Part shown: one piece after another, positions 1 to 27,646 of the stretch
How positions within the stretch are numbered: the first letter of the stretch is position 1
Layout of the letters: each line of letters starts with the position of its first letter
Assembly: GCA_964493585.1 (NCBI GenBank)
Contig: CAZBOR010000007.1
Coordinates: 1-29,618, forward strand
Source of the DNA: an uncultured Oscillospiraceae bacterium
GTDB taxonomy: Bacteria; Bacillota; Clostridia; Oscillospirales; Oscillospiraceae
DNA length: 29,618 nt
Direction: 5' to 3'
Made by a program: the position numbers and the translations under genes
Notes under the pieces: generated by a model
Told to the model about the DNA's origin: nothing
Database searches by the model: none
The model's input: the letters and a program-made list of their open reading frames with translations, nothing else

Positions 1-1454
1 CAGACGCGGAGGAAAAGGGCATCGAGGCGTGTACCGCCTGGCTGGGCCAGGAGCCTGTGATCCTCACCTCGGAGGAGTATCCCTGGTTCGGCGTGGACGA
101 GAATGGCGGTCTCCAGTTCTACCCCAGCGATTATGACTATACCAAATATGAGGACAGCGACGACGACGCCTTTTTTCCGACCATTCTGGACGGGACCCTG
201 GTGACGGGCTTCGGCGAGGACTGCTTTGAGAATGTGTCATGGGACAATACCCCCGTGGACGTGCCGGCCAACTACACCTGGGTGGGGAGCTATGCCTTTG
301 CGGGCTGCGACGGCCTGACCAGAATCAATCTCAGCGCGAATACGACGTCTATTGAGAAAAAAGCGTTCTATAACTGCGACAGCCTCACGGCTGTGGTGAT
401 GCCGGACAGTCTGGAGTATCTGGGCGAGAGCGCCTTTGAAGGCTGCGACTATCTGAATTCCGTGACATTGAACGAGGGCCTTGTGGAGATTGGCGAGTAT
501 GCGTTTTACGACTGCGGAAGTCTGAAAAGCATTACCATTCCCGGCACGGTACAGAATGTGGGGAAGCAGGCATTCTACCAATCCAATCTGGAGAGCCTGA
601 CATTGGAGGAAGGCGTGGGCTATCTGGGCGAAAAATCCTTTTCCAGCTGCGACAGCCTCGTCTCTGTGACGATCCCCTCCACTGCGGAGGTGGGAAATTA
701 TGCCTTTGCGTACTGTGACAATCTGGGGACCGTGGTGCTCACCAGCGGCGTGACGACGATCGACGAGGGCGCGTTCCGGGAATGCCCGCAGCTATGGAAT
801 CTGGGCATCAGCGATACCCTCTCGGTGATCGGCGACTGCGCGTTCTATCAGGACGGAGCGCTCAGCAGCATTTCCCTGCCGGCCACCATCACCTATATCG
901 GGGCCAGCGCCTTTTCCGGGTGCGACGGTATCGGCGAGATCTGGATCGCGGACAACGATGGACTGGTCATCGGGGACGAGGCCTTCTATAGCTGCGACAG
1001 TCTCAGCGGCGCCAGCCTGGGCGTCGGCACCACCAGCCTGGGCGAGAGCGCCTTCGACTGCTGCGGCAGCATGACCTGGGTGACGCTGCCTGAGGGCCTG
1101 ACCTCCATTGGGAACTACTGCTTTGCCGCGGACGCCCTCTATGAGGTGAGTATCCCCAGCACTGTCACCTACATCGGCGAAGGGGCCTTCAAGGAGTGCG
1201 ACTACCTCCAGGGCATTTCGATCCCCGCCGGGGTGTCGATCCTTGAATCCGGGACCTTTGCCTACTGCGACAGCCTCTACTGGGTGTGGTTCAAGGGAGA
1301 AATGAGCATCATCCGGGACGACGCATTCAGCGGCTGCGGCAGCTTTGCCCAGGTGTACTACAGCGGCAGCGCCGATTCCTGGTATGCGGTGAGCACCGGC
1401 AACAACGAGGTGCTGTCCAATGCCCAGTTGATTTCCGATTTCTATGGGAATTGA
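1..1454 (+). CDS. BspA/TpLRR-type leucine-rich repeat surface protein, 5'-truncated at the window edge
   Basis: Reading frame is open from nt 3 with no stop, so the gene starts upstream and GTG at 57 is not the true start. About 20 tandem ~23-aa repeats of pattern (A/E)F.xCxxLxx(V/I)x(I/L)Pxx(V/L)xxIGxx fit the BspA/Treponema LRR family. Stop TGA at 1452-1454. Confidence 0.75.
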   Translation, partial: DAEEKGIEACTAWLGQEPVILTSEEYPWFGVDENGGLQFYPSDYDYTKYEDSDDDAFFPTILDGTLVTGFGEDCFENVSWDNTPVDVPANYTWVGSYAFAGCDGLTRINLSANTTSIEKKAFYNCDSLTAVVMPDSLEYLGESAFEGCDYLNSVTLNEGLVEIGEYAFYDCGSLKSITIPGTVQNVGKQAFYQSNLESLTLEEGVGYLGEKSFSSCDSLVSVTIPSTAEVGNYAFAYCDNLGTVVLTSGVTTIDEGAFRECPQLWNLGISDTLSVIGDCAFYQDGALSSISLPATITYIGASAFSGCDGIGEIWIADNDGLVIGDEAFYSCDSLSGASLGVGTTSLGESAFDCCGSMTWVTLPEGLTSIGNYCFAADALYEVSIPSTVTYIGEGAFKECDYLQGISIPAGVSILESGTFAYCDSLYWVWFKGEMSIIRDDAFSGCGSFAQVYYSGSADSWYAVSTGNNEVLSNAQLISDFYGN

Positions 1455-1467
1455 GAGGAGGAGAATC

Positions 1468-3252
1468 ATGGCAAAGTTTGTGATTGAATGCCCTAGCTGC
1501 CAGAGCTATGTGCGGGTGTCCGGCGGCCTGTTCGCGAAAAAAGCGATCACCTGCCGCTGCGGTCAGGTCATTGATATTCAGGCCAACCGCATGATGAGCC
1601 GGGTATGCCCCCACTGCGGGAACAGCGTGGTCTTTGACGCAGCCAAGGGCGAAAAGGCGAAATGCCCCGTCTGCAAGGAGCTAATCAACACCACTGCGGA
1701 GCAGAGCCATACCGAGGAATTTGTCTGCGCCCAGTGCGGCATCCGGCTCCGGGCGGACAAAAACGCGGCCACCTACCGCTGCCCGGCCTGCGGCGCCGAG
1801 AACGACGTTCAGGCCCAGATTGCAAAGGAGCGCATCTCCCGCCAGGGCGTGGCCAGCATCATCAAGTACGAGGGCGACAACAAGACCTTTATCTGGAAGC
1901 ACCCCGTTGAGGATTTCAACATGGGCTCCCAGCTCATCGTCCATGAGACTCAGGAGGCGGTGTTCTTCCGGGACGGTCAGGCGCTGGACAGCCTGGGACC
2001 GGGACGGCATACCCTGGAGACCCAGTCCCTGCCGATCCTGGAGAAATTCTACAAGCTCCCCACGGATTCCACCAAAACCTTCCATGCCGAAGTCTATTTC
2101 ATCAATCTGACCACCCAGATGGGGATCAAGTGGGGGACCGACTCCAAGGTCCGGGTGAAGGACCCGGTCAACGGCTTCTATGTGGAGCTGGGCGCGGGCG
2201 GCGAGTTCAGCCTGAAGGTCAGCGACCCCAGGCGGCTGCTGCTGAAGCTGGTGGGAACTGGCTCCGGCATTGGCCAGGAGGACCTGCTGAGCACCGGCAC
2301 CGTGGGCGGCGTCAGCCGTCAGACCGGCTATCTGCGGGGCATGATCGTCACCCATATCAAGACCTATCTGGCCCAGACCATCCGCCAGGAGAACATCAAT
2401 ATTCTGGAGATCGACGACAAGCTGCTGGAGCTGAGCCAGGGCATGAAGGCCGTCATCAATCAGGAGCTGCGGGAATACGGCCTGACCATGCCGGACTTCT
2501 TCGTGAACCGCATTGTCACCCCGGATGACGATGAGAACTTCATCCGGCTCAAGCAGCAGTTCGCCCAGGAGGTCCTGGACGTCCGGCAGGAGGCCATCCG
2601 GCAAAGGACCGCCGAGGCCGCCCGCGACCGTATGCGGGTGGAGGCCGAGACCCAGGCGGAGATGCAGATCATCGCCGCCAAGGCGGAGGCCGAGGCCAAG
2701 CGTCAGGCCATTCTGGTGGAGGCGGAGGAAATGCGCCTCAAGGGATACAGCTATCAGCAGGAGACGGCCCGGCAGGTGGGGCTGAACGCCACCGGACAGA
2801 TCGGCGAGGGCGGCGGCTCCGGCGGTCTGGGGGACCTGATGGGTCTGGGCGTGGCCATGGGAGCCATGGGCTCCATCGCCAGCACCACCCGGAACGCGGT
2901 GTCCGGGATGATGGAGCCCGGCAGCGTTCCGGCAGGGAGCTGGACCTGTAGCTGCGGTGCTCAGAACACCGGGAAATTCTGCGCCGAGTGCGGCGCGCCC
3001 AAGCCCCAGACGGCGGAGAGCTGGACCTGTGCCTGCGGCGCGCAGAATACGGGCAAGTTCTGCTCGGAGTGCGGCGCGCCCAAGCCCCAGACAGCGGAGA
3101 GCTGGACCTGTAGCTGCGGGGCCAGAAACACCGGGAAATTCTGCGCCGAGTGCGGTGCGCCGCGCCCGGATGGGACCTGGACCTGCTCCTGCGGGCAGAC
3201 GGGCATCACCGGAAAATTCTGCCCGGAGTGCGGCAAAAAGAAGGGAGAATGA
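1468..3252 (+). CDS. Multi-zinc-ribbon Band-7/SPFH-like protein (Band_7_1/COG4260-like core with a coiled-coil), 594 aa
   Basis: RBS GAGGAGGAG at 1455-1463 is followed by ATG 1468; the track's upstream M at 1444 lies inside the RBS. The N-terminus has three CxxC...CxxC pairs: CPSC/CRCG, CPHCG/CPVC, CAQCG/CPACG. The core IWKHPVEDFNMGSQLIVHETQEAVFFRDGQALDSLGPGRHTLETQSLPIL resembles SPFH 'virion-core-like' proteins. An Ala/Glu/Arg-rich coiled-coil follows, then a Gly-rich linker. The C-terminus has four tandem WTCxCGxxNTGKFCxECGAP repeats. Stop TGA at 3250-3252. Confidence 0.7.
   Translation: MAKFVIECPSCQSYVRVSGGLFAKKAITCRCGQVIDIQANRMMSRVCPHCGNSVVFDAAKGEKAKCPVCKELINTTAEQSHTEEFVCAQCGIRLRADKNAATYRCPACGAENDVQAQIAKERISRQGVASIIKYEGDNKTFIWKHPVEDFNMGSQLIVHETQEAVFFRDGQALDSLGPGRHTLETQSLPILEKFYKLPTDSTKTFHAEVYFINLTTQMGIKWGTDSKVRVKDPVNGFYVELGAGGEFSLKVSDPRRLLLKLVGTGSGIGQEDLLSTGTVGGVSRQTGYLRGMIVTHIKTYLAQTIRQENINILEIDDKLLELSQGMKAVINQELREYGLTMPDFFVNRIVTPDDDENFIRLKQQFAQEVLDVRQEAIRQRTAEAARDRMRVEAETQAEMQIIAAKAEAEAKRQAILVEAEEMRLKGYSYQQETARQVGLNATGQIGEGGGSGGLGDLMGLGVAMGAMGSIASTTRNAVSGMMEPGSVPAGSWTCSCGAQNTGKFCAECGAPKPQTAESWTCACGAQNTGKFCSECGAPKPQTAESWTCSCGARNTGKFCAECGAPRPDGTWTCSCGQTGITGKFCPECGKKKGE
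2938..3237 (+). repeat. In-frame tandem repeat, 81-bp period, about 3.7 copies, encoding C-terminal zinc-ribbon repeats
   Basis: Units begin at 2938, 3019 and 3100 with AGCTGGACCTGT; a degenerate fourth unit starts near 3172. Copies differ mainly at synonymous third positions, e.g. gct cag aac acc ggg aaa versus gcg cag aat acg ggc aag. Confidence 0.85.
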
Positions 3253-3255
3253 GCC

Positions 3256-3921
3256 ATGAAGCAGAAGTATTCTGTATTGGCAGTGGCAGGCATCCTGCTG
3301 GTGCTGTTTTCCTTGATCGTGTTTATCGCGCCGTTCCCCAAGACGGGGGTGTTCTGGCTTTCCTATGTGTTTGCGTTGATCGCCATAGCCGCGCAGCTCC
3401 TGTTTGTGTATGTGGCCTTCTCCGACGGCACATCGGCCCGGAGCCGGTTCTACGGTTTCCCCATTTTCCGCATCGGCATCATCTATCTGGTGGTTCAGCT
3501 TGCGCTGAGCGTGGTGTTTATGCTCCTGGGCAGATGGATTCCCATGTGGATACCGACCCTGTGTGATCTGGTGGTGCTGGGATTGGCGGCCATCGGCCTG
3601 ATCGCGGCGGACAACGTCCGGGACAGCGTCCGCGTGGTGGAGCAGAAGCAGGCGGACAATACCCGCCAGATGCGCGCCCTGCGCCGCACCGCCGATGTGC
3701 TGGCCCAGCGCTATCCGGAGCTTTCCCCGGTGGCCGAGGCGCTGCACCTTGCGGATCCGGTGTCAACGGGGGCCTCGGAGGAGTACGAACGCCACATCTA
3801 TGATCTGCTGCGGGAAATGGAACAATGCCCGGATGAGGCCGGCCGTATTCAGCGGAAGAATCAGGTCCTGGAGGCCATCTCCCAGCGAAATGCCGTCTGC
3901 AAGGCCGGCAAGACAAGATAA
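3256..3921 (+). CDS. Hypothetical membrane protein: four predicted TM helices plus a roughly 100-aa charged alpha-helical C-terminal domain
   Basis: ATG at 3256 lies 3 nt after the upstream stop, with RBS AAGGGAG overlapping that stop, so it is translationally coupled. Hydrophobic segments: AVAGILLVLFSLIVFIA, VFWLSYVFALIAIAAQLLFVYVAF, IFRIGIIYLVVQLALSVVFMLL and LCDLVVLGLAAIGLIAA. Confidence 0.6.
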   Translation: MKQKYSVLAVAGILLVLFSLIVFIAPFPKTGVFWLSYVFALIAIAAQLLFVYVAFSDGTSARSRFYGFPIFRIGIIYLVVQLALSVVFMLLGRWIPMWIPTLCDLVVLGLAAIGLIAADNVRDSVRVVEQKQADNTRQMRALRRTADVLAQRYPELSPVAEALHLADPVSTGASEEYERHIYDLLREMEQCPDEAGRIQRKNQVLEAISQRNAVCKAGKTR

Positions 3922-3925
3922 TTCG

Positions 3926-3977
3926 GCGCCCGGAGCTGTCCCAAATCGGTCAGCTCCGGGCTTTTCACTGTTTTTTT
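3926..3977 (+). terminator. Rho-independent terminator ending the LRR / Zn-ribbon-SPFH / membrane-protein operon
   Basis: GC stem GCGCCCGGAGCTG (3926-3938) pairs with CAGCTCCGGG (3951-3960) across a 12-nt loop. It is followed by CTTTTCACTGTTTTTTT at 3961-3977. Confidence 0.8.
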
Positions 3978-4008
3978 ACGGGTTGTTCATACACTTTTGC
4001 GGATGTTG

Positions 4009-4017
4009 TGCTATAAT
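4009..4017 (+). promoter_or_regulatory. Extended -10 promoter element TGcTATAAT for the LtaS-family gene
   Basis: tgTGcTATAAT at 4007-4017 sits 36 nt upstream of ATG 4053. No good -35 is seen at 17-nt spacing. GGAG at about 4039-4042 serves as RBS. Confidence 0.55.
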
Positions 4018-4052
4018 GACCGGAGAGATTTTTACAATGGAGTGTTTCTTAG

Positions 4053-6191
4053 ATGCAGTATTCACGGCGGTCCGTTCGTATTGGAGCGGTCATATCCTTT
4101 GTGCTGTTCGCTCTGATCGCGGTCCAATACGAGAAATTCCTTGCTGTAGAGGACTGGGGCTGGCTCATGTACGCGGTGAGCCTTGGGGCGGCGCTGCTGG
4201 TCTGGCCGATGCTGGCGGTCCGGTGGACAAGTCCCAGATGGCTCCGCGGCATCTGCATGGTCTGGCTGATGACTGCCGCGCCCCTTATCATGATGATCGC
4301 CGTGGAGCGGCTCAACGGCAATTATATCACCGGCTTTCTGTCCGGGGACGAGGACGTGCTGGCCAACTATGTGGTGTATATGCTGCTGTACCTGCTGGTG
4401 TTTGGACTGAGCGGCAGCCTGCGTATCTCCATCCTGACGGTCAGCCCGGTGGTGCTGCTGTTCGGCATCGCCAATATGTACGTCAAGGAGTTCAAGGGCA
4501 GCCCTCTGGTACCCATGGACCTGGGCAGCATCGCCACGGCGGCCAACGTGGCGGCGGGCTATACCTACGAGATCGGCTATGAGATATTGTTCGCGGTGGC
4601 GCTGACGGCGGCGCTGATGGCGGCGGCCTCCCGGCTCCGCATGAGCCGATGGAAGCTGCCGGCAAAGCTCGTGGTCCGGGCCCTGTGCCTGCTGGTGGTG
4701 GGCGGCTTCGCCTATACCTTCTATTGCACGGACATTGTGGCGGACAACGGGCTCAAGCCGGACTTCTTTAATCAGACCCGCGGCTACAGGAACCACGGCG
4801 CGCTGCTGGAGTTCACGCTGAACACCAAGTACCTCTGGCTGGTGGAGCCCTCCGGCTATGACGCGGACGCGGTGGAGGACATCGTGGCGGAGCAGCTCGC
4901 CGACGGCACGGACAACATTCTGGTCACGGCGCTGGTGCGCCAGGGCATGGACCGGACGGAGGCGGAGGAGTATGTGAATTCCATTCTGACCGCCGGGGAG
5001 CAGGGCGTCACGCCCAATATCATCGTCATCATGAACGAGAGCTTTTCAGACCTGCGGGTGGTGGGGGATATTGAAACGAACATCCCCTATATGCCCTTTA
5101 TCGACAGCCTGGAGGAGAACACGATCCAGGGCAACGTCTATGTGTCCACCATCGGCACCGGCACCAGCAACACGGAGTTTGAGTTCCTGACGGGAAATAC
5201 CATGGCCTTTCTCCCGGCGGGGAGCAACGCCTATCAGCTCTATGTGAAGCAGCAGCAGCCCGGACTGGTGTCCACGCTGCTGCATCAGAACTACACCGCC
5301 GACGCCTTCCATCCCTACTTTGAGAGCAGCTGGAACCGGGTCAGCGTCTACGACCTGATGGGGTTCCGGGATTTCATCACCCTGGAGGACATCGTTGACG
5401 AGGACATCATCGAGCGGTACAAGTCCAGCGGCTACAGCTACAGCCTCTATAAGCGGCTGCTGAAGCAGCGCTATCCCGACGAGGACATCATTCTCCGGCG
5501 GTATGTCAGCGACGAGTATGATTTTCAGAAGGTCATTGAGATGTACGAGAACAAGGACGACCAGCCCTTCTTCCTGTTCAACGTCACCATGCAGTCCCAC
5601 TCCAGCTACGACCAGAAGTTCGACAACTTTGACCAGGAGGTGTATCTGACCTCCACGGAGAAGGAGTACCCCAAGACGGACCAGTACCTGTCCCTCATCA
5701 AGCGCACGGACGACGCCTTTCAGGAGCTGCTGGAATACTTCTCCGAGGTGGAGGAGCCGACCATCATCCTGATGTTTGGGGACCATCAGCCCTTTATCGA
5801 GGACGCCTTCTACAGCGAGGTCATGGGCCAGTCCGTCAGCCAGATGGACGATGAGACCCAGCAAAAGCGCTATATCACCCGGTTCATCCTGTGGGCCAAC
5901 TACGACATCCCGGAGGGCTGGATCGACGAGATCAGCATGAACTATCTGTCCACGCTGCTGCTGCAGGTGGCGGGGCTGGAAATGCCGGACTACAACGCCT
6001 ATCTGGCGGACCTCTATACCCGGATGCCGGTCATTACGGCCCTGGGCTGCCGGGACGCGGAGGGAAACTACTTCCAGGCGGACCAGGCCACAGACCTCCG
6101 GACCCTGGTGCAGAACTACCGCTATGTGGCCTATAACAATCTGGCCGACACGGAAAACCGCAAGGACAGATTGTTCTATTTGGGGGACTGA
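4053..6191 (+). CDS. LTA-synthase (LtaS) family membrane sulfatase-fold transferase
   Basis: An N-terminal polytopic membrane region of about 230 aa precedes an extracytoplasmic alkaline-phosphatase/sulfatase domain. It carries the LtaS-like nucleophile motif STIGTGTSNTEFEFLTGN and the metal-binding motif ILMFGDHQP. Stop TGA at 6189-6191. Confidence 0.7.
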   Translation: MQYSRRSVRIGAVISFVLFALIAVQYEKFLAVEDWGWLMYAVSLGAALLVWPMLAVRWTSPRWLRGICMVWLMTAAPLIMMIAVERLNGNYITGFLSGDEDVLANYVVYMLLYLLVFGLSGSLRISILTVSPVVLLFGIANMYVKEFKGSPLVPMDLGSIATAANVAAGYTYEIGYEILFAVALTAALMAAASRLRMSRWKLPAKLVVRALCLLVVGGFAYTFYCTDIVADNGLKPDFFNQTRGYRNHGALLEFTLNTKYLWLVEPSGYDADAVEDIVAEQLADGTDNILVTALVRQGMDRTEAEEYVNSILTAGEQGVTPNIIVIMNESFSDLRVVGDIETNIPYMPFIDSLEENTIQGNVYVSTIGTGTSNTEFEFLTGNTMAFLPAGSNAYQLYVKQQQPGLVSTLLHQNYTADAFHPYFESSWNRVSVYDLMGFRDFITLEDIVDEDIIERYKSSGYSYSLYKRLLKQRYPDEDIILRRYVSDEYDFQKVIEMYENKDDQPFFLFNVTMQSHSSYDQKFDNFDQEVYLTSTEKEYPKTDQYLSLIKRTDDAFQELLEYFSEVEEPTIILMFGDHQPFIEDAFYSEVMGQSVSQMDDETQQKRYITRFILWANYDIPEGWIDEISMNYLSTLLLQVAGLEMPDYNAYLADLYTRMPVITALGCRDAEGNYFQADQATDLRTLVQNYRYVAYNNLADTENRKDRLFYLGD

Positions 6192-7890: not shown

Positions 7891-8430
7891 ATGGAATTAA
7901 AGGGGTCAAAGACCGAGAGCAACCTGATGGCGGCCTACGCGGCGGAATCCGAGGCCAGGAACAACTACACCTTTTATGCGGGCGTCGCCCGGCGGGACGG
8001 CTACGAGCAGATCGCGGCCATCTTTGAGGAGACGGCCGCCAACGAGAAGGAGCACGCGGAGCTGTGGTACAAATACCTCAACGGCGGCGACTTCTCGGAC
8101 ACCGGGGCAAACCTGGCCGCGGCTGCCCAGGGGGAGCGGTACGAGCATACGGAGATGTATCCCCGGTTTGCCAGGGAGGCCAGGGAGGAGGGCTTCGAGG
8201 AGATCGCCCAGCGCATGGAGCGGGTGGCCCGGGTGGAGCGGGAGCACGAGGAGCGCTACCGGAAGCTGCTCCGGAATGTGGAAAATGGTCTGGTGTTCTC
8301 CAGGGATGGAGACATGGTCTGGCAGTGCCGCAACTGCGGCCACATCCACGTGGGAAAATCCGCGCCGTCGGTGTGTCCCGTGTGCAACCATACGCAGGCG
8401 TACTTCCAGCTCAAGCCGGAAAATATTTGA
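7891..8430 (+). CDS. rbr: Rubrerythrin: ferritin-like diiron domain plus C-terminal rubredoxin-like domain
   Basis: RBS AGGAGG at 7878-7883 is followed by ATG 7891. Diiron ligand motifs E..E.H appear twice ([10 protein letters not shown] / EKEHAELW and ERYEHTEMY / EREHEERY). The C-terminus reads CRNCGHIH...CPVCNH. Stop TGA at 8428-8430. Confidence 0.9.
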
Positions 8431-8433
8431 GGT

Positions 8434-9945
8434 TCATTCCCGCATATAGGCCCTTGCGTCCTTCATAAAGCTCAATATAATCAGGACCAGTACCGCCGCG
8501 ATGGGGAAGGCGGCGACGATGCTCACCGACTGGAGGGCGTTCATGGAGCTTTCCGCAAAGACCAGCGCCATGGGCAGCAGGATCAGCAGGATGCACCACA
8601 TGAGCTGTACCAGCTTGTGCGGCGCGGCCCCATCGCTCAGGGTGTGGTAGCTGTAGCAGGAGGCCGTCAGGGCGATGGAGTCAAAGCTGGTGGCGTAGAA
8701 GGCCACCATGGTCAGCAGCACCAGCGCCAGCACCAGCGGCGCGCAGGGCAGCGTGCTCAGAATGGACACGATGAGGCCGTACAGGTCCCCGGTCTCCTGA
8801 TAGATGCCGAGAAAGTCCGCCCCGCCGGTCATCTGCAGGCCCATGGAGTAATTTCCGAGGATGATGAAGCTCACCACGGTGGACCCGGCCCCGAAGCAGT
8901 AGCCGCCCAGGATGGTCTGCCGCACGGTGCGGCCCTGGGAGATGTTCCCAATGAAAAAGGGCGCGGCCACGCACCAGACCATCCAGTAGGCCCAGTAGTA
9001 GATGGTCCAGTTCTGGGGAAACGAGGTGGTGCGTAGGGGGTCTGTGTAGGTGGACAGCTCCGGGAAGTTTTGCAGCATCCGGCCCAGGGAGGAAAGCCCC
9101 GTTTCGAGGATATACCGGGTCTGCCCGCCCAGCAGCAGCACATAGGCCAGCAGACCGAAGAACAGATAGATGCAGACCTTGGCCAGAATACAGATGCCCC
9201 GGAACCCGTGGAGCAGGGAATAGGTATAGACCACACAGGTGACAGCCAGGATGGCGATCGTCACGGCGGTTCGGTTCAGCTCCGTGTGGAACAGCGCCTC
9301 CAGGAGGCTCGCCATCAGCGGCGTGGCCACGCTGAAGGTGGTGGCGGTGCCTGCCAGCAGCGCAAACACCGCCAGCAGGTCAATGATGCGGCCGGGGATG
9401 CCGTCGGTGTGACGGCCCAGGATGGGACGGCAGGCCTCGGAGTATTTCTGGCGGTCCCGTCCCCGGACGTGGAGCATGAATCCGAAGGCCACGGCCAGCG
9501 TCAGATAGAAGCTCCAGGGGATCAGGCTCCAGTGGAACAGCGGGAACACGCCCGCCCAATCCTGGATGCTGCCCAGCTCCGCCAGGTGCGGGTCGGAGGC
9601 GTACAGGATCCACTCGGACAGGGAGTAGAACAGGATGTCCGCCGCCAGACCGCAGGTGAACATCATGCAGCCCCAGGCGAAGAAGGAATACCTGGGCGTT
9701 TCGTTTTTGCCGCCCAGGACGATGGTTCCGTATTTGGACAGGGCGATATACAGGCTCAGCAGAAAAACGCCAAGGCCGATCACCAGATAGTACCCGCCGA
9801 AGGTATCTCCAAAGAAGAACCGTATCTGGCCCAGGACCTGGGTGCTGCGCTCCGGATAGAGGAGGAACAGCGCGCAGAGGGTCACGATCAGGCCCAGGGG
9901 TACCAGAGTGATAAGCCAGTCGATGCTTCGTGCCGGACGTTTCAT
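8434..9945 (-). CDS. BCCT-family (betaine/carnitine/choline) transporter, likely the choline importer of the lic-like operon
   Basis: ATG is the reverse complement of 9943-9945, preceded by AAGGAGG with 9-nt spacing. The first 7 codons in the track (TTG at 9966) are rejected. Twelve TM helices are predicted, and the BCCT signature WTIYYWAYWMVWCVAAPFFIGNISQGRTVRQ is present. The start overlaps the upstream gene's stop as ATGA. Confidence 0.8.
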   Translation of the reverse strand: MKRPARSIDWLITLVPLGLIVTLCALFLLYPERSTQVLGQIRFFFGDTFGGYYLVIGLGVFLLSLYIALSKYGTIVLGGKNETPRYSFFAWGCMMFTCGLAADILFYSLSEWILYASDPHLAELGSIQDWAGVFPLFHWSLIPWSFYLTLAVAFGFMLHVRGRDRQKYSEACRPILGRHTDGIPGRIIDLLAVFALLAGTATTFSVATPLMASLLEALFHTELNRTAVTIAILAVTCVVYTYSLLHGFRGICILAKVCIYLFFGLLAYVLLLGGQTRYILETGLSSLGRMLQNFPELSTYTDPLRTTSFPQNWTIYYWAYWMVWCVAAPFFIGNISQGRTVRQTILGGYCFGAGSTVVSFIILGNYSMGLQMTGGADFLGIYQETGDLYGLIVSILSTLPCAPLVLALVLLTMVAFYATSFDSIALTASCYSYHTLSDGAAPHKLVQLMWCILLILLPMALVFAESSMNALQSVSIVAAFPIAAVLVLIILSFMKDARAYMRE

Positions 9946-10670
9946 CGGTCCATGCCTCCTTCCCAATCGGAGCGGTAGCTGGGGTCCAGCTCCGCCAGCT
10001 CCCGGAGACTGTCGATCTCCCGGACGGCGTCTGGCGGCATCTCCCGTATGCCCAGGCTGTATTTTTCCGGGTGGCAGAACAGCGGCACGTCGTCCCAGTA
10101 GAGCTGACGGTTTTGCTTCTGCTCAAATTCCAGCTCCAGGTGGGCTCGGAGGCGGCGGCCGTCCTCCGCGTTCCAGCGGGAGATGCTGTAGAGGATATAG
10201 CCGCCGGAGCCGCCGCTGCGGCTGCACGAGGTGATGATCCCGTCCTCAACGGTCAGCAGCCACTCCCCGGTGCTGCCGTCGGTCCGGACGCAGTTGTAGC
10301 CGGAGCGCTCAAATTCCGGCCGGAGCACGGTGTCGTCATAGATGACCTGGTCCCCGTCGAGTATGATGGCGTCCTCCAGATGGGACCGGGCCACATACAG
10401 GGAGGAGATATTGCCGCAGGTCCGGTAGTAGGGATTTTCGATCAGATGGAGGCCGGGATAGGCCCGTTCCAGCGGGGCAAACAGCTCCTTGAGATACCCC
10501 ACCACAACATAGATTTCGTGGATGCCCTGGCGGCGCAGGCCGGTAATGGCCGTTTCGATCATGGGAACGCCGCCCACAGGCACCAGGGGCTTGGGAATGG
10601 TCAGGGTCAGAGGCCGCATACGGAGTCCCAGCCCGGCGGCCATGAGGATCGCACGCTTTACCCGGTACAT
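9942..10670 (-). CDS. LicC-like sugar-phosphate/choline-phosphate nucleotidyl (cytidylyl)transferase, 242 aa
   Basis: ATG is the reverse complement of 10668-10670 with RBS GGGAGGTGA. The N-terminus RAILMAAGLGLRMRPLTLTIPKPLVPV carries the G-x-G-x-R glycine-rich loop of the GlmU/RmlA/LicC nucleotidyltransferase fold. The motif NISSLY and a C-terminal LYWDD segment are present. It overlaps the upstream gene by 13 nt. Confidence 0.7.
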   Translation of the reverse strand: MYRVKRAILMAAGLGLRMRPLTLTIPKPLVPVGGVPMIETAITGLRRQGIHEIYVVVGYLKELFAPLERAYPGLHLIENPYYRTCGNISSLYVARSHLEDAIILDGDQVIYDDTVLRPEFERSGYNCVRTDGSTGEWLLTVEDGIITSCSRSGGSGGYILYSISRWNAEDGRRLRAHLELEFEQKQNRQLYWDDVPLFCHPEKYSLGIREMPPDAVREIDSLRELAELDPSYRSDWEGGMDR

Positions 10671-12442
10671 ATCTCGTCACCTCCCGTGGCGTCCAGCATT
10701 TCCCGGACCAGCTTGTAATAGTCCTTGGCATAGCGGTACTGCCGGAGGGAGTATGCGCCGAACTCCACGCCCAGGGCCCGCTTGTACTCGCACCAGTTGC
10801 TCCAGAGCAGTCCCGCGGCGGCGATGAAGCAGTAGATTTTGATGCGTGTCTCCTTTGCACAGCCATCGGGGAAATACAGCCCGATGAGCCGGTCCACCTG
10901 GTCCCGGCTGTACATGGAATAGATGCAGAACATGGCGATGTCCAGATGCGGGTCCTGCATTCCCGCGTACTCCCAGTCGATGAGGTGCAGCTCCTCCCGG
11001 CCATGGCTGTTTTGGACAAAGAGAAAGTTGTCCGGCACCGCGTCCACATGGGTCAGCACATACGGCTCCGCGTGGGCCTCCACATAGGGACGGAGGGACA
11101 GCACCCGGTCGCGGGTCTGCCGGTAGTCCCGGTAGACCGAGGGCGCGCCATTCCACAGGGATTCATAGAATACGATCTGCCCGAACAGGTCAAAGGTGTG
11201 GTCCACCGTCAGCTTCATCCGGTGAAAGTCCCGGAGCCGCTCCATACATCGGGCGACGTCGTTCCAGTCCCGGCTGTCGCATACCCTGGCGTGGTCCAGA
11301 AACCGCGTGAGCTTATACCCGGAATCCGGGTCCATATAGACCACCGGAGGACAAAGGCCCTTTCCGGCGATGGCGGCGTAGACTGCGGCCTCCTGGCGGC
11401 GGTCTATGAGGCGGTTGGAGCCCTCTCCGGGGATCCGCATGAGATAGCTGCATCCCCGGCAGGTAAAGCGGAAGGAGCGGTTGGTCATGCCCTTTTTCAT
11501 CACCGTGATGTCCGTAAGCTCCTCAGGCCGGACCGTCAGGGCCTGGCAGATCGCGGAGATCGCGTCGGACCGCAGCTGGTTGGATCGGCTGTCCAGGTCC
11601 CGGAGCTGCTCATAGGTGTTGATCTCCACGAAGTCGGAGGCGGAAACCAGCCGGGCGGCGGTCAGCATCCGGCCATTTTGATCGAGGGCCGCCTCCCAGA
11701 AGGCGTCGTTGTACCTGGGGTCCCGGCAGAGCTCCCGGATGCGCTGCCGGACCATCGGGGCGTCCTCCTCCGTCAGATAGCAGATGCCCAGCATGGCGTT
11801 GCCCACGGAGTTCCGGGGGACGGACACAAGCTCCCGTTTCCGATTGACATGGACGGAGCTGCCGGGGTCCATTCGGTCGCTGACCATGTACCAGGAGTAC
11901 AGCTCGTGGCGGCGATAGGGGTTGTCGGCGCACCAGATGTCACAGGGGATGATGTAGCTGTTGGAGAGGTGGTCCAGAGCCAGGGCCAGAGAGTGCAGAT
12001 TGTTTCCGGCGGCATAGTCGGCATTTACGATCAGCTCCACGCCGTATTCGTCGATCAGGTATTCGTAGTGCTCCTTCATAAAGCCCACGACCACATAGAT
12101 TTCGCGGATGCCCGCCGCGTGGAGCTGCCGTATGGTCCGCTCGATGAGCCGCTGGCCATGCACCTCCAGCAGGCCCTTGGGCGTCTCGGTGTTGATGGGG
12201 ACCATCCGCATCCCAAAGCCCGCCGCGAGGATCACGGCGCGTTTCGGGGATAGGGCCTGCGCGGCGCGGACAGCCTTCTCGGTGGGCCGGGCGGAATCGC
12301 CAAGATAGCCCGCCTCCGTCAGCGATTTGAGACAGCGGTTGACCATCCCCAGACTGTGACCGGAGGCTTTGGCCAGGGCGCGCTGGCTCGAAAAGGGCCG
12401 GTCCATCAGCGCGTTCAGAATATCACATTCCTGTATGTTCAT
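10658..12442 (-). CDS. Tri-domain fusion: N-terminal winged-HTH + LicC-like cytidylyltransferase + LicA-like choline/ethanolamine kinase (LicCA-like)
   Basis: ATG is the reverse complement of 12440-12442 with RBS AAGGTGA. Residues 1-50 (ILNALMDRPFSSQRALAKASGHSLGMVNRCLKSLTEAGYL) form a MarR/TrmB-like wHTH. Residues about 70-300 form the nucleotidyltransferase fold, with AVILAAGFGMRMVPINTETPKGLL and NNLHSLA. Residues about 300-594 form the kinase, with the Brenner motif LTHVDAVPDNFLF and the choline-kinase motif IDWEYAGMQDP. Confidence 0.75.
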   Translation of the reverse strand: MNIQECDILNALMDRPFSSQRALAKASGHSLGMVNRCLKSLTEAGYLGDSARPTEKAVRAAQALSPKRAVILAAGFGMRMVPINTETPKGLLEVHGQRLIERTIRQLHAAGIREIYVVVGFMKEHYEYLIDEYGVELIVNADYAAGNNLHSLALALDHLSNSYIIPCDIWCADNPYRRHELYSWYMVSDRMDPGSSVHVNRKRELVSVPRNSVGNAMLGICYLTEEDAPMVRQRIRELCRDPRYNDAFWEAALDQNGRMLTAARLVSASDFVEINTYEQLRDLDSRSNQLRSDAISAICQALTVRPEELTDITVMKKGMTNRSFRFTCRGCSYLMRIPGEGSNRLIDRRQEAAVYAAIAGKGLCPPVVYMDPDSGYKLTRFLDHARVCDSRDWNDVARCMERLRDFHRMKLTVDHTFDLFGQIVFYESLWNGAPSVYRDYRQTRDRVLSLRPYVEAHAEPYVLTHVDAVPDNFLFVQNSHGREELHLIDWEYAGMQDPHLDIAMFCIYSMYSRDQVDRLIGLYFPDGCAKETRIKIYCFIAAAGLLWSNWCEYKRALGVEFGAYSLRQYRYAKDYYKLVREMLDATGGDEICTG

Positions 12443-12471
12443 GTACTTATCACCTTCGCTTATTCGTGAAC

Positions 12472-12489
12472 AATGCGTTCAGACGCATT
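12472..12489 (-). promoter_or_regulatory. Perfect 7-4-7 inverted repeat AATGCGT-TCAG-ACGCATT, candidate operator at the lic-like operon transcription start
   Basis: The palindrome is seen directly in the sequence. It overlaps the -10 hexamer and the predicted +1 of the minus-strand promoter. Confidence 0.6.
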
Positions 12490-12515
12490 ATAGCATATCC
12501 GGGCCGGCGGGTCAA
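12487..12515 (-). promoter_or_regulatory. Sigma-A-type promoter of the licCA-licC-BCCT operon: TTGACC, 17 nt, TGcTATAAT
   Basis: Read on the minus strand, the -35 TTGACC is the reverse complement of 12510-12515. A 17-nt spacer follows. The extended -10 TGCTATAAT is the reverse complement of 12487-12495. The start codon is 38-45 nt downstream. Confidence 0.65.
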
Positions 12516-12623
12516 GACCGGGATCCGGGGAACGACAACGGGCCTGCTTGACACAATTCCGCGCTTCGGCGGGTATGGCGCTGCGGCAACGGAGACTTTT
12601 TTCAAAAAAGTTGTTTTTATGTC

Positions 12624-12652
12624 TTGGATTTCTTGAAATAATCTGATATAAT
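12624..12652 (+). promoter_or_regulatory. tig promoter: TTGGAT, 17 nt, TGaTATAAT
   Basis: -35 at 12624-12629, extended -10 TGATATAAT at 12644-12652. The 5' UTR of about 80 nt contains a GGC-UUCG-GCC tetraloop hairpin at 12706-12715. Confidence 0.5.
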
Positions 12653-12736
12653 CTATAAGCTGTCCCAGAGTGCTTTTACATCTGGAAACCTTATATAAAA
12701 AAGTGGCTTCGGCCGTGAATACAGGAGGAAAAACCA

Positions 12737-14041
12737 ATGAACGTGAAAAGCGTAGAAAAAAACGAAAACAGTACCGCCAAGCTTGTGCTGGAATTTGACA
12801 AGGCCACCTTCCAGACTGCCCTGGATAAGGCTTACCGCCGCGTCCGGAACGACATCTATATCCCCGGCTTCCGCAAGGGCAAGGCGCCCAGGAAGATCGT
12901 GGAGGGGATGTACGGCGCCCAGGTGTTCTATGAGGACGCCATCAACCTGCTGTTCCCCGACGCATGGGAAGAGGCTACCAAGGCGGAGAATCTGAATGTG
13001 GTGGGCAGTCCCAGTATTGCCGACCTGAACGTGGAGGACAGCGGCAATCTGGTGCTCACGGTGGAGGCCGGACTGTATCCTGAGGTCACACTGGGCCAGT
13101 ACAAGGGCATCGAGGCCGAGAAGTCCGCCGTGGAGGTCTCCGAGGAGGAGATTGATGCGGAGGTCCGGAAGCTGGCCGACCGCAATTCCACCGTGGAGAC
13201 GGTGGAGCGTCCTGCGGAAAACGGCGACACCGTGGTGATCGACTACGAGGGCTTTATGAACGACGTTCCCTTTGAGGGCGGCGCGGGCGAGGGCCACAGC
13301 CTGAAGCTCGGCTCCGGCACCTTTATCCCCGGCTTTGAGGACCAGCTGGTGGGCGCGTCCGCCGGCGAGGATCGGGAGGTCAACGTGACCTTCCCGGAGG
13401 ACTACGGCGCGGAGGACCTGGCCGGAAAGCCTGCGGTCTTTAAGGTCAAAGTCAAGGAGGTCAAGGCCACCAACACGCCGGAGCTGGACGATGAGTTCGC
13501 CAAGGACGTGTCCGAGACCGCCGATACCATGGAACAGCTCCGGGACGAGCTGAAGGAGAAGCTGCTGAAGGAAAAGACGGACAGCGCCGAGAGCGCCTTC
13601 AAGGACGCCGTGATGGAAAAGGCGCTGGAGAACATGACGGCTGTGATTCCGGACGCGATGGTGGAGGAGCAGCTTGACAGCACCATGCAGCAGCTCTCCA
13701 TGAGTATGCAGCAGAGCGGCTTCACCCTGGAGCAGTATGCACAGATGATGAGTACCACCGTGCAGGGCATCCGGGACAGCCAGCGGGAATCCGCAGTGAG
13801 CCAGATCAAAAACACGCTGCTGCTGGAGAAGGTGGCCGAGACGGAGAACATCGAGATCACCGACGAGCAGGTGGAGACGGCCTATCAGAAGATGGCGGAG
13901 CAATATGAGATGGAGCTGGAAAAGGTCAAGGAGTATGTGTCGGTGGAGGAGATCCAGCGGGATCAGAAGTTCCAGAAGGCCATGGAGCTGATCGTTGACA
14001 GCGCTGTGGAGAAGGCGCCGGAGGCTCCCGCCGCAGAATAA
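12737..14041 (+). CDS. tig: Trigger factor (ribosome-associated PPIase chaperone)
   Basis: RBS AGGAGG at 12723-12728 is followed by ATG 12737. The 434-aa product has an N-terminal ribosome-binding domain including the GFRKGKAP motif, an FKBP-like middle domain and a C-terminal helical arm. Confidence 0.95.
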   Translation: MNVKSVEKNENSTAKLVLEFDKATFQTALDKAYRRVRNDIYIPGFRKGKAPRKIVEGMYGAQVFYEDAINLLFPDAWEEATKAENLNVVGSPSIADLNVEDSGNLVLTVEAGLYPEVTLGQYKGIEAEKSAVEVSEEEIDAEVRKLADRNSTVETVERPAENGDTVVIDYEGFMNDVPFEGGAGEGHSLKLGSGTFIPGFEDQLVGASAGEDREVNVTFPEDYGAEDLAGKPAVFKVKVKEVKATNTPELDDEFAKDVSETADTMEQLRDELKEKLLKEKTDSAESAFKDAVMEKALENMTAVIPDAMVEEQLDSTMQQLSMSMQQSGFTLEQYAQMMSTTVQGIRDSQRESAVSQIKNTLLLEKVAETENIEITDEQVETAYQKMAEQYEMELEKVKEYVSVEEIQRDQKFQKAMELIVDSAVEKAPEAPAAE

Positions 14042-27053: not shown

Positions 27054-27646
27054 CGACAAAAAGCTGGTATAAGCTGCTGTACGCCGTGGTGCGGCCCTTC
27101 GTGGGGCTGTACTACCCGATGAAATTCATCGGCCGGGAGAATATCCCGGAGGGCGGGGCCCTGGTCTGCAGCAACCATTCCTCCGCCATTGACCCGTTTT
27201 TTCTGGCCTTTGCCCTGACCATGCGGCGGCCCATGTGCGCCATGGCGAAGGAATCCCTGATGAAGATCCCCGTCCTCGGCTGGCTGCTGAAAAAGGTGGG
27301 GACCTTTGGAGTTAAACGCGGCGCGTCGGACATTCACGCGGTGAAGTACGCCATGGAGCAGCTCAGGAACGGGGAATATGTGGTGCTGTTCCCGGAGGGA
27401 ACGCGGGTCAGGTCCCGCGAGGAGGGCCAGCCGAAAACCGGCGCCGCCATGCTTGCCTGCCGAACGGGCGTCCCCGTACTGCCCGTGTACGTCCCCATGA
27501 AGAAGCGGCCCTTCCGCATCAACCGGGTGTATATCGGCCAGCCCCTCTTCTTAAAGCCGGAGGGCAGGCGCGCCACCAATCAGGACTATGAAAGCATGAC
27601 CGGTCTCCTGATGGACCGCATCTATGACTGTGGGGACGGACGATGA
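27050..27646 (+). CDS. plsC: 1-acyl-sn-glycerol-3-phosphate acyltransferase
   Basis: The start overlaps the cmk stop as ATGA. Acyltransferase motifs NHSSAIDP (HX4D) and FPEGTR are present. Confidence 0.88.
   Translation: MTTKSWYKLLYAVVRPFVGLYYPMKFIGRENIPEGGALVCSNHSSAIDPFFLAFALTMRRPMCAMAKESLMKIPVLGWLLKKVGTFGVKRGASDIHAVKYAMEQLRNGEYVVLFPEGTRVRSREEGQPKTGAAMLACRTGVPVLPVYVPMKKRPFRINRVYIGQPLFLKPEGRRATNQDYESMTGLLMDRIYDCGDGR

Follow-up and report, generated by a model that had tools for sequence, protein, structure and literature searches.

A winged helix-turn-helix fused to choline-activating enzyme domains as a candidate repressor of its own operon

Can an enzyme of choline activation serve as the transcriptional regulator of the operon that encodes it, and which DNA element would it then recognize? 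This question is raised by a three-gene operon on the minus strand of the window (the whole stretch of 29,618 nucleotides analyzed here, from an uncultured Oscillospiraceae bacterium). The initial annotation described its first product as a three-part protein of 594 residues, and took a palindrome overlapping the promoter to be its operator.

Organization of the fusion protein and its operon

Gene 1 (10658..12442, minus strand) is an open reading frame of 594 codons encoding a winged helix-turn-helix (wHTH), a LicC-like nucleotidyltransferase and a LicA-like choline kinase, and the three-part description is confirmed by the reading frame itself, the Pfam domains (NTP_transf_3 at residues 69-170 and Choline_kinase/APH at residues 312-523) and the relatives present in the PDB. 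The closest solved relatives are Streptococcus pneumoniae LicC (1JYK, E 1.8e-25) in the case of residues 68-284 (11591..12241, minus strand) and Streptococcus pneumoniae LicA (4R77, E 3.6e-25) in that of residues 301-572 (10727..11542, minus strand). The AlphaFold model of the protein gave Foldseek matches to both, with target-normalized TM scores (TMt) of 0.83-0.85 between the kinase domain and LicA. No solved structure was found to correspond to the full-length protein, LicA and LicC having been solved separately. The kinase motifs pointed out at the outset, H465-x-D467-xxxx-N472 (HxDxxxxN) and IDWEYAGMQDP (I488-D489-W490-E491-Y492), are invariant across the family. The fused nucleotidyltransferase domain carries the N-terminal GxGxR...PK signature of LicC-type enzymes in the form AAGFGMRMVPINTETPKGLL; in the alignment with 1JYK, the DAD and EID of LicC are replaced by PCD and EIN. 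Judging from its sequence, this domain may be either catalytic or a sensor.

Gene 2 (9942..10670, minus strand), which overlaps gene 1 by 13 nt, encodes a stand-alone LicC-type cytidylyltransferase of 242 amino acids, identified from its reading frame and by Pfam, which is closer to LicC (1JYK, E 1.4e-32) than the fused domain is and retains both Asp residues at the DAD and EID positions. Gene 3 (8434..9945, minus strand) encodes a BCCT-family transporter (Pfam BCCT, E 1.8e-119), presumed to be a choline importer. The reading frame called mechanically starts at a TTG (9966), and gene 3 was called at 503 amino acids in a contig of the same species (L089); the likely start is the ATG at 9945, which overlaps the stop codon of gene 2 (ATGA). 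The end of the operon is set by a convergent rubrerythrin gene at 7891-8430. The sigma-70-type promoter TTGACC-17-TGcTATAAT (12515..12487, minus strand; 11 of 12 consensus matches plus the TG), which had already been recognized, is the only promoter-like site of the intergenic region in the scanned interval 12300-12800.

The N-terminus of the gene 1 protein is a genuine wHTH domain (residues 1-64; 12251..12442, minus strand), as the initial annotation had claimed. HTH_24 matches residues 1-47 with an E-value of 5.7e-11 (42.2 bits, the Pfam cut-off being 21.9), and MarR_2 gave a score lying under its cut-off of 27 (24.3 bits, E 3.6e-5). In the AlphaFold2 model, helices at residues 3-14, 20-27 and 31-43 form a three-helix bundle, the recognition helix (residues 31-43, SLGMVNRCLKSLT) is followed by a beta-hairpin wing (strands at 47 and 53), and a fourth helix covers residues 55-64. 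The pLDDT of the domain is 72-90 within the full model and 85 when the domain is modelled alone. The isolated sequence had no sequence match in the PDB; the best Foldseek matches are MarR-family wHTH domains, including the DNA-bound Rv2887 and ZitR (TM 0.7-0.8, rmsd 1.5-2.5 A, with E-values of 0.05-0.2 for this small domain). Across 70 homologues, residues G28, H29, S30, L31, G32, V34, N35 and R36 do not vary. The recognition helix as a whole (SGHSLGxVNR) hardly changes, and no other part of the domain is as strongly conserved. The three-domain architecture was found in more than 500 species, among which are Faecalibacterium prausnitzii, Fusicatenibacter, Dorea, Streptococcus porci and Granulicatella.

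A conserved 12-bp element and its possible modes of action

The motif TGTTCAYGAAAA is conserved (at least 8 of 12 positions matching) in 69 of the 77 HTH-bearing loci compared, and in 62 of these 69 it sits at -29 or -30 relative to the start codon. The loci carrying it belong to many families in three phyla (Bacillota, Coriobacteriia and one spirochaete, a Treponemataceae genome), and the positions flanking it are not conserved (0.05-0.4 bits). The copy present in the window, site 1 (TGTTCACGAATA; 12461..12472, minus strand; 17.9 bits), adjoins the palindrome; it precedes the ATG by 30 nt and would occupy roughly +9 to +20 of the transcript predicted from the promoter. Using a position weight matrix (PWM) built from the same sites that it scores, 54 matches of at least 12 bits were detected in the 25-nt target zone vs. 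80 in the other 1.69 Mb, a rate at which about 0.09 would be expected in the zone.

Of the 41 loci where a promoter could be recognized, 27 have the end of the -10 box 1-16 nt ahead of the motif. At L028, the strongest copy lies inside the untranscribed 17-nt spacer of a promoter with 11 of 12 matches. The gene order at L066 is LicC followed by HTH-LicCA, and there an inverted pair of motifs lies ahead of LicC, just after a promoter with 12 of 12 matches; the element hence goes with the promoter of the operon and not with the start codon of the putative regulator. Both loci point to an action of the element on DNA at the promoter. At L081, the closest relative from a different species, the best promoter-like sequence precedes the motif by 47 nt, which places the motif away from the transcription start there.

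Two further copies lie closer to and within the coding sequence. Site 2 (AGTACATGAACA; 12436..12447; 7.4 bits on either strand) is a weaker, nearly palindromic copy over the start codon; its family consensus is wGTwCATGAACA, and conservation among the loci extends to its non-coding positions, -4 to -1. The Shine-Dalgarno sequence read between sites 1 and 2 (GAAGGTGA; 12450..12457, minus strand) corresponds to a purine-rich block present at this place in all the loci compared. Site 3 (CGTTCAGAATAT; 12412..12423, plus strand; 8.3 bits) is an inverted copy in codons 7-10 (D-I-L-N), and reverse-strand matches of at least 8 bits occur at +19 in 13 of 67 loci, where about 0.02 would be expected. It is the weakest of the three sites, since it is confounded by protein conservation. 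The synonymous codon choice at Asn2 and Asn10 is biased towards the motif: with the 36% AAC usage elsewhere in the same genes as a baseline, AAC occurs at Asn2 in 58 of 68 genes (26.8 expected, p 5e-17) and at Asn10 in 30 of 34 (12.3 expected, p 3e-10). The three sites are spaced 24 bp apart and are mirror-symmetric about the start codon, site 3 mirroring site 1.

The gene 1 enzyme probably also represses its own operon through the 12-bp element, in the manner of BirA or NadR. Based on homology, the BCCT transporter would import choline, the LicA-like domain would phosphorylate it, and a LicC-type domain would produce CDP-choline for the phosphocholine decoration of a surface polymer, this last step being attributable to the fused domain, to the gene 2 product, or to both. 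Comparative genomics suggests that the MarR-like wHTH binds the element TGTTCA[C/T][G/A]AAAa, the strong copy of which comes directly after the -10 box and the transcription start predicted from it (12461-12472), with the weaker copy over the start codon (12436-12447) and, in many genomes, the inverted copy in codons 7-10 (12412-12423). An oligomer bound to three copies would cover about +9 to +70 and block either initiation or early elongation. By analogy with BirA and NadR, the affinity for DNA might depend on whether the catalytic domains are occupied by choline, phosphocholine, CTP or CDP-choline, so that the uptake and activation of choline would come under feedback control. The 24-bp spacing, which amounts to 2.3 helical turns, is structurally unaccounted for and counts against autorepression.

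A more elaborate form of this reading, which we put forward only tentatively, is that the operator is a mirror-symmetric array of about 60 bp consisting of three 12-bp sites centered exactly on the start codon. The large oligomeric body of the enzyme would set the unusual spacing, and DNA binding would be switched as ligands fill the LicC-like and LicA-like active sites; the fused LicC-like domain might serve as a dedicated CDP-choline sensor, leaving catalysis to gene 2. Codons 1-10 of the DNA-binding domain would then also form part of the operator recognized by that domain, and this would account for the bias towards AAC at Asn2 and Asn10.

The same bias is compatible with a role of the element in the mRNA. 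GUUCA at -28 might pair with UGAAC, in the start codon and Asn2 or in codons 9-10, and mask the ribosome-binding site, or the protein might bind its own 5' UTR as a translational repressor. The motif is indeed transcribed in most of the loci, flanks the Shine-Dalgarno sequence and keeps a fixed distance of 24-25 nt from the start codon even where the promoter is apparently further off, and GUUCA and UGAAC are complementary, with AAC preferred at both Asn codons. We nevertheless regard this explanation as unlikely. The consensus fold has only five pairs, all invariant (-1.45 kcal/mol), with no compensatory changes, and the site 1 variants GCTCA, ATTCA and TTTCA are uncompensated. Pairing does not explain the conserved 3' half, CGAAAA, or positions -4 to -1; the L028 copy lies in untranscribed DNA, and double-stranded DNA is the normal target of MarR-type wHTH domains. 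A known RNA family was rejected, the leader having no match in Rfam. The five pairs show no covariation and the leader of the window folds no better than shuffled sequences (z = 0.07), so that a hairpin between site 1 and the start codon is retained as a minor alternative.

Co-occurrence of the element with the HTH, and the case of the palindrome

Five distinct loci belonging to a clade of HTH-less LicC-LicA fusions (P0121-P0143) retain the same LicCA-LicC-BCCT operon as that of gene 1 without the cis-motif, the best match in these loci reaching 8.6 bits, and no split-off HTH gene was found near them using tblastn. The motif is also absent from L054 and L078, in both of which the recognition helix has diverged. 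In all, 67 loci with a canonical HTH carry the motif and 9 do not, vs. 2 with and 7 without it among those where the HTH is absent or degenerate (Fisher p 7e-5), the latter class including L066, which was placed there by a regular expression although its helix, AISLGLAN, is near-canonical. When L066 was reclassified by hand, the counts became 68 vs. 9 and 1 vs. 7, and since the HTH-less loci form one clade, the independent losses of the HTH number only about four or five. The remaining exception, L065, has lost the HTH and kept the promoter and both sites; it could be a recent HTH deletion. The nine canonical loci had no motif match of at least 12 bits, and several of them are embedded in larger polysaccharide operons.

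These exceptions would also fit a view in which the HTH is a structural, oligomerization or vestigial module, and the motif is bound by a separate transcription factor of the host or is a feature of the promoter or leader. The motif is kept at L065 without an HTH and is missing from some HTH-bearing loci, and a neighboring 809-residue enzyme at L025 has a similar N-terminal module that is not called an HTH by Pfam. This explanation strikes us as improbable, however: the motif travels with the operon through Bacillota, Coriobacteriia and a Treponemataceae genome, where no common host factor would be expected, it disappears when the HTH is lost or the recognition helix changes, and the residues of that helix show the strongest conservation in the domain.

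The palindrome reported initially, AATGCGTTCAGACGCATT (AATGCGT-N4-ACGCATT; 12472..12489, unstranded), is a perfect 7-4-7 inverted repeat as described, and is not statistically remarkable, repeats of this size being common by chance: counting arms of 7 bp or more with loops of 0-10, the window has 33 such repeats vs. 26 +/- 6 in shuffles, and 14% of the shuffled copies of the 294-nt intergenic region hold at least one. That it is the operator of a wHTH dimer is very improbable: it is perfect and overlaps -10 to +9, the classic position for a repressor, but none of the 82 orthologous upstream regions examined in other species contains it, not even those of the closest homologues (70% and 64% identity). 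Its absence there, in the presence of the conserved fusion, is the outcome that the initial annotation had itself named as refuting. With a recognition helix that hardly varies, a species-specific target is unlikely; the best score of the palindrome against the family motif (-6 bits) indicates no similarity. Although it is kept in the contig L089 (protein 99% identical), this is uninformative as to its conservation because 359 of the 361 upstream bases are identical. Being unconserved, frequent by chance and unlike the motif, the palindrome was rejected as the operator; it is lineage-specific, and most likely incidental or at most a species-specific addition. The proposal that the enzyme is its own regulator gains strong support from the comparison of loci (69 of 77 with the motif, which is missing where the HTH is absent or its helix diverged), but loses the operator originally assigned to it. 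This move from the palindrome to the 12-bp motif matters for the design of EMSA or reporter experiments.

Relation to known systems and further occurrences of the element

BirA consists of an N-terminal winged HTH fused to an enzyme of the regulated pathway and represses the operon of its own pathway, the ligand or product state of the enzyme controlling both oligomerization and DNA binding. The gene 1 protein similarly has an N-terminal wHTH fused to a pathway enzyme; its catalytic domains are unrelated, and whereas BirA binds as a dimer to a single 40-bp palindromic operator, the candidate sites here are two or three 12-bp units 24 bp apart, one of them on the start codon. NadR, which regulates uptake and salvage genes, combines an HTH with an NMN adenylyltransferase and a ribosylnicotinamide kinase. 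The statement that gene 1 has the same architecture as NadR holds for the three-part logic, in which a DNA-binding domain is joined to a nucleotidyltransferase and a kinase that share a metabolite, but not for the domains themselves, which are not homologous: no NadR-related models were found in the gene 1 protein with Pfam or NCBIfam. This protein is composed of an HTH_24/MarR-like domain, an NTP_transf_3 domain (LicC-like, GT-A-type fold) and a choline/APH kinase, the nucleotidyltransferase preceding a protein-kinase-like kinase, and its candidate operator bears no relation to that of NadR.

LicA and LicC of Streptococcus pneumoniae catalyze the same pathway from choline to phosphocholine and CDP-choline; unlike gene 1, they are separate proteins without a DNA-binding domain. 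The N-terminal domain of gene 1 has the wHTH fold of MarR-family repressors, but the MarR dimerization helices are replaced by an enzyme body, and the 16-20-bp palindrome bound by MarR repressors contrasts with a candidate 12-bp unit repeated at 24-bp spacing.

Bacterial surface phosphocholine shapes interactions with host immunity. In Clostridium immunis, the three-gene licABC operon (choline kinase, transporter, phosphocholine transferase) is reported to be needed for phosphocholine on an exopolysaccharide, and homologues in many gut commensals have been described, the operon having been linked to host metabolic effects (bioRxiv 10.1101/2024.06.12.598703). It is a homologous three-gene gut operon, the licA of which may share the architecture of gene 1, and that paper mentions neither a helix, nor a fusion, nor autoregulation (bioRxiv 10.1101/2024.06.12.598703). 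Within the library of papers searched, there was likewise no mention of the fusion as a regulator or of the 12-bp motif; the architecture is widespread and apparently uncharacterized in this respect. The comparison of sequences suggests that the choline operon of more than 500 species has a first enzyme doubling as its transcriptional regulator, and it provides a precise candidate operator sequence. If this is the case, the protein would be a new member of the small set of enzyme-repressors comprising BirA, NadR and similar proteins, would account for an automatically annotated and unexamined domain in thousands of database proteins, and would offer a handle for predicting or engineering phosphocholine display. 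Should the three-site array also apply, hundreds of gut and oral commensal species would possess a widespread, previously unrecognized metabolite-sensing enzyme-repressor of this display.

The resemblance of the element to the CodY, Rex and cre motifs is presumably superficial, and these factors are, to our knowledge, not common to the phyla carrying it. Scanned with the PWM, neither the window nor 846 kb of DNA flanking the loci showed extra sites clustered at other promoters. One match of 18 bits, for which chance could account, lies at positions 1529-1540 of the window within an SPFH-domain gene.

A winged-helix enzyme at the head of a choline operon

Gene 1 (10658..12442, minus strand) encodes a protein of 594 aa in which Pfam identifies HTH_24 at residues 1-47 (E 5.7e-11, exceeding the gathering score), MarR_2 (a weaker match), NTP_transf_3 at residues 69-170, and Choline_kinase/APH at residues 312-523. 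The nearest solved structures are those of pneumococcal LicC for residues 68-284 (1JYK, 1.8e-25) and pneumococcal LicA for residues 301-572 (4R77, 3.6e-25), and both can be superposed on the AlphaFold model of the gene 1 product (pLDDT 75). Sequence and fold alike place the two catalytic domains in the LicC and LicA families. In the same model, residues 1-64 form a helix-helix-helix-wing-helix arrangement, the top structural matches of which are wHTH domains of the MarR family (TM 0.7-0.8), several of them solved on DNA, and the N-terminus is a member of the wHTH superfamily. The fusion of a wHTH, a cytidylyltransferase and a choline kinase, described in the initial annotation, is confirmed. 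In the protein P0213, encoded by a contig of the same species (L089), 7 of the 594 residues are substituted, including the otherwise invariant Gly28, which is replaced by Ser just before the recognition helix (KASSHSLG).

Gene 1 is followed on the minus strand by gene 2 (9942..10670), encoding a second LicC-type enzyme (LicC match 1.4e-32) which is closer to LicC than the domain fused in gene 1, and by gene 3 (8434..9945), encoding a BCCT transporter according to Pfam; the overlaps amount to 13 nt between genes 1 and 2 and 4 nt between genes 2 and 3. Since the fused LicC-like domain carries PCD and EIN at the positions where LicC and the gene 2 product have D-x-D and EID, it may possibly play the role of a sensor. 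The end of the operon is set by a convergent rubrerythrin gene. Upstream of gene 1, the divergent neighbor is the trigger factor gene, followed on the plus strand by ORFs presumed, from their order, to be ClpP, ClpX, and Lon, and then by those of a GTPase and ScpA/ScpB. The setting is chromosomal, among housekeeping genes, in a bacterium of about 61% G+C that is probably of clostridial type. A preprint describing a gut licABC operon that looks homologous (bioRxiv 10.1101/2024.06.12.598703) lends support to phosphocholine on a surface polymer as the end use; none of the window ORFs scanned with Pfam gave a match to a licD-type transferase. The window also encodes, unconnected with the present findings, an IspH(LytB) fused to four S1 domains (27643-29580, plus strand), an LtaS-like membrane protein with a sulfatase domain (4053-6191, plus strand), and a BspA-type leucine-rich-repeat protein (57-1454, plus strand).

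The upstream region and its conserved 12-bp element

The promoter previously proposed upstream of gene 1, TTGACC-17-TGcTATAAT, is present (11/12 match), as is the perfect 7-4-7 palindrome at 12472-12489, which had been taken to be the operator. This palindrome was rejected in that role: it occurs in none of the 82 other upstream regions compared (those of the best 80 loci and of the two closest metagenomic homologs, showing 70% and 64% identity), and is thus missing from the promoters of orthologs that keep the fusion, a result named in the initial annotation as refuting it; the window has no excess of palindromes with arms of 7 bp or more (33, as against 26 +/- 6 in shuffled sequences), 14% of the shuffled intergenic regions holding at least one; and it scores -6 bits against the matrix of the family motif. 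The only closer relative, L089, is identical to the window at 359 of 361 upstream positions and hence uninformative on this point. A second palindrome, ACTTTTTTCAAAAAAGT (12595-12611), and the element TTTCAAGAAAT (12628-12639) are found in this intergenic region as well, toward the trigger factor side; both are AT-rich, with weak motif-like matches (12-13 bits).

Nearly every upstream region contains the consensus TGTTCA[C/T][G/A]AAAa. This motif is matched at 8 or more of its 12 positions in 69 of the 77 HTH-bearing loci, and in 62 of these 69 it starts (first T) at -29 or -30 relative to the ATG. Nine positions have an information content of 1.4-2.0 bits, as compared with 0.05-0.4 in the flanks. 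Over 76 loci, matches of at least 12 bits number 54 in the 25-nt target zone, where about 0.09 would be expected, and 80 in the remaining 1.69 Mb on both strands, the matrix having been trained on the very sites scored. In the window, site 1 (TGTTCACGAATA, 12461-12472, minus strand, 17.9 bits) directly adjoins the palindrome. Site 2 (12436-12447) lies over the start codon, with the consensus wGTwC-ATG-AACA; its TGTTCATGAACA form is a perfect palindrome, and across loci there is conservation at its non-coding positions, -4 to -1. Site 3 (12412-12423, plus strand) is an inverted copy at +19..+30, within the stretch coding for D7-I8-L9-N10. With the start codon as the axis it mirrors site 1 exactly, and the three sites are therefore 24 bp apart; at some loci, site 1 is preceded by an extra forward copy lying about 24-25 bp further upstream. 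Codon usage shows nucleotide-level selection at Asn2 and Asn10: AAC is used for Asn2 in 58/68 genes and for Asn10 in 30/34, as against 26.8 and 12.3 expected from each gene's own usage, and accounts for 36% of the Asn codons elsewhere in the same genes. A further match to the family motif, TGTTCGCGAAAA (1529-1540, plus strand, 18 bits), inside an SPFH/Band-7 gene (1444-3252), is compatible with chance in a search space of 59 kb.

In 27 of the 41 loci with a recognizable sigma-70 promoter, the distance from the end of the -10 box to site 1 is 1-16 nt, most often 5-7 nt, so that the motif begins at or just past the transcription start; site 1 of the window lies at about +9. At locus L028, the strongest copy falls between the two boxes of an 11/12 promoter, in the 17-nt spacer, which is not transcribed. 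Locus L066 (4914-5010 and 5004-7462) shows the reversed gene order, LicC preceding HTH-LicCA, and an inverted motif pair, TGTTCACGAAAT-N14-ATTCCGTGAACA, comes upstream of LicC, right behind a 12/12 promoter; the element thus tracks the promoter of the operon rather than the start codon of the regulator. The geometry of this pair is unlike the usual one. We favor a putative DNA operator at the promoter on these grounds. Action at the RNA level is kept as a minor rival, because the motif lies at a fixed distance from the start codon and the only promoter-like site of the closest different-species relative is 47 nt upstream. However, the leader has no Rfam match, its folding in the window is no better than that of shuffled sequences (z = 0.07), the pairing in the alignment consensus is limited to GUUCA:UGAAC, five pairs that are all invariant (-1.45 kcal/mol) and show zero compensatory changes, and the variants of site 1 are uncompensated. 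At six loci (L004, L010, L017, L018, L041, and L076), terminator-like hairpins precede the motif, their ends lying 13-16 nt from it with little variation, which leaves little room there for a sigma-70 promoter.

Co-occurrence of the element with the DNA-binding domain

A clade of LicCA proteins devoid of the HTH (P0121-P0143, 515-539 aa) retains the LicCA-LicC-BCCT operon, and at five distinct loci of this clade no site in the 150 nt upstream scores above 8.6 bits with the matrix. The motif is also missing at loci L054 and L078, where the fold is kept and the recognition helix has diverged (STKFLND and PTRILDR, respectively, vs. SLGxVNR in the family). The motif is present in 67 and absent in 9 of the loci with a canonical HTH, and present in 2 and absent in 7 of those with an absent or degenerate one (Fisher's p 7e-5); since the HTH-less loci form one clade, these counts reflect only about four or five independent events, and L066 (helix AISLGLAN, near-canonical) was placed by the regular expression in the absent/degenerate row, the counts after moving it by hand being 68/9 and 1/7. 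The only true case of a motif without an HTH is L065 (3780-3900), where the HTH is cleanly deleted (MNCRRNTMPDAENPHLFYHQARNAVILAAG...) and the TATAAT box is retained together with TGTTCATGAAAT and, at the start codon, the copy TGTACATGAAC; since there is no split HTH gene nearby, this looks like a recent deletion. Four loci with a canonical recognition helix (L034, L043, L047, and L048) have HTH-LicCA inside longer polysaccharide-biosynthesis operons with no motif nearby, and L043 also carries a separate HTH-less NT-kinase paralog (283-1893).

The motif accompanies the operon across phyla that are not expected to share a host factor, which makes the DNA-binding domain encoded by the operon itself its likely partner. 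Judging from these sequence comparisons, the gene 1 product probably autoregulates the operon through the TGTTCAYGAAAA sites. The wHTH would bind the motif sites on DNA, covering approximately +9 to +70 and repressing the operon; an oligomer might read the array of sites, the 24-bp spacing being set by the body of the enzyme. By analogy with BirA and NadR only, DNA binding could be expected to vary with the occupancy of the catalytic sites (by choline, phosphocholine, CTP, or CDP-choline), which would result in feedback control over choline uptake and activation. The idea of an enzyme-regulator with its own operator is strengthened by the conserved motif and its co-occurrence with the HTH, the 12-bp motif taking the place of the palindrome; as for the NadR-like logic of the initial annotation, the likeness to NadR and BirA holds for function, neither protein being homologous to the gene 1 product.

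Distribution of the architecture

The HTH-LicC-LicA architecture is very common. In two protein searches (at least 8000 candidates each), PF13412 was present in all 120 best hits of the first and in most of the second, and a scan with one genome per species gave at least 557 relatives. The carriers include Faecalibacterium prausnitzii, Fusicatenibacter, Dorea, Acetatifactor, Streptococcus porci, Granulicatella, Anaerococcus, and Limosilactobacillus, as well as Coriobacteriales and one Treponemataceae genome. The databases name these relatives just "choline kinase," "NTP transferase domain-containing protein," or "phosphotransferase," and no paper treating the HTH fusion as a regulator or describing the motif was found in the literature searched. 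Variants of 824-831 aa (P0003-P0005, P0051, P0054, and P0142) appear, from their lengths and Pfam lists only, to have the second LicC fused at the C-terminus (HTH-NT-kinase-NT). At locus L025, the gene at 2486-4915, directly upstream of the HTH-LicCA gene, encodes an 809-aa protein consisting of an HTH-resembling N-terminal module of about 70 aa (KKAEFDILLYM...) together with LicC-like NTP_transf_3 and SHMT/aminotransferase-like domains. This protein is similar to the phosphonate cytidylyltransferase-aminotransferase fusion PDB 6PD1, apart from the additional N-terminal module, which suggests that the wHTH-LicC arrangement recurs on other enzymes.
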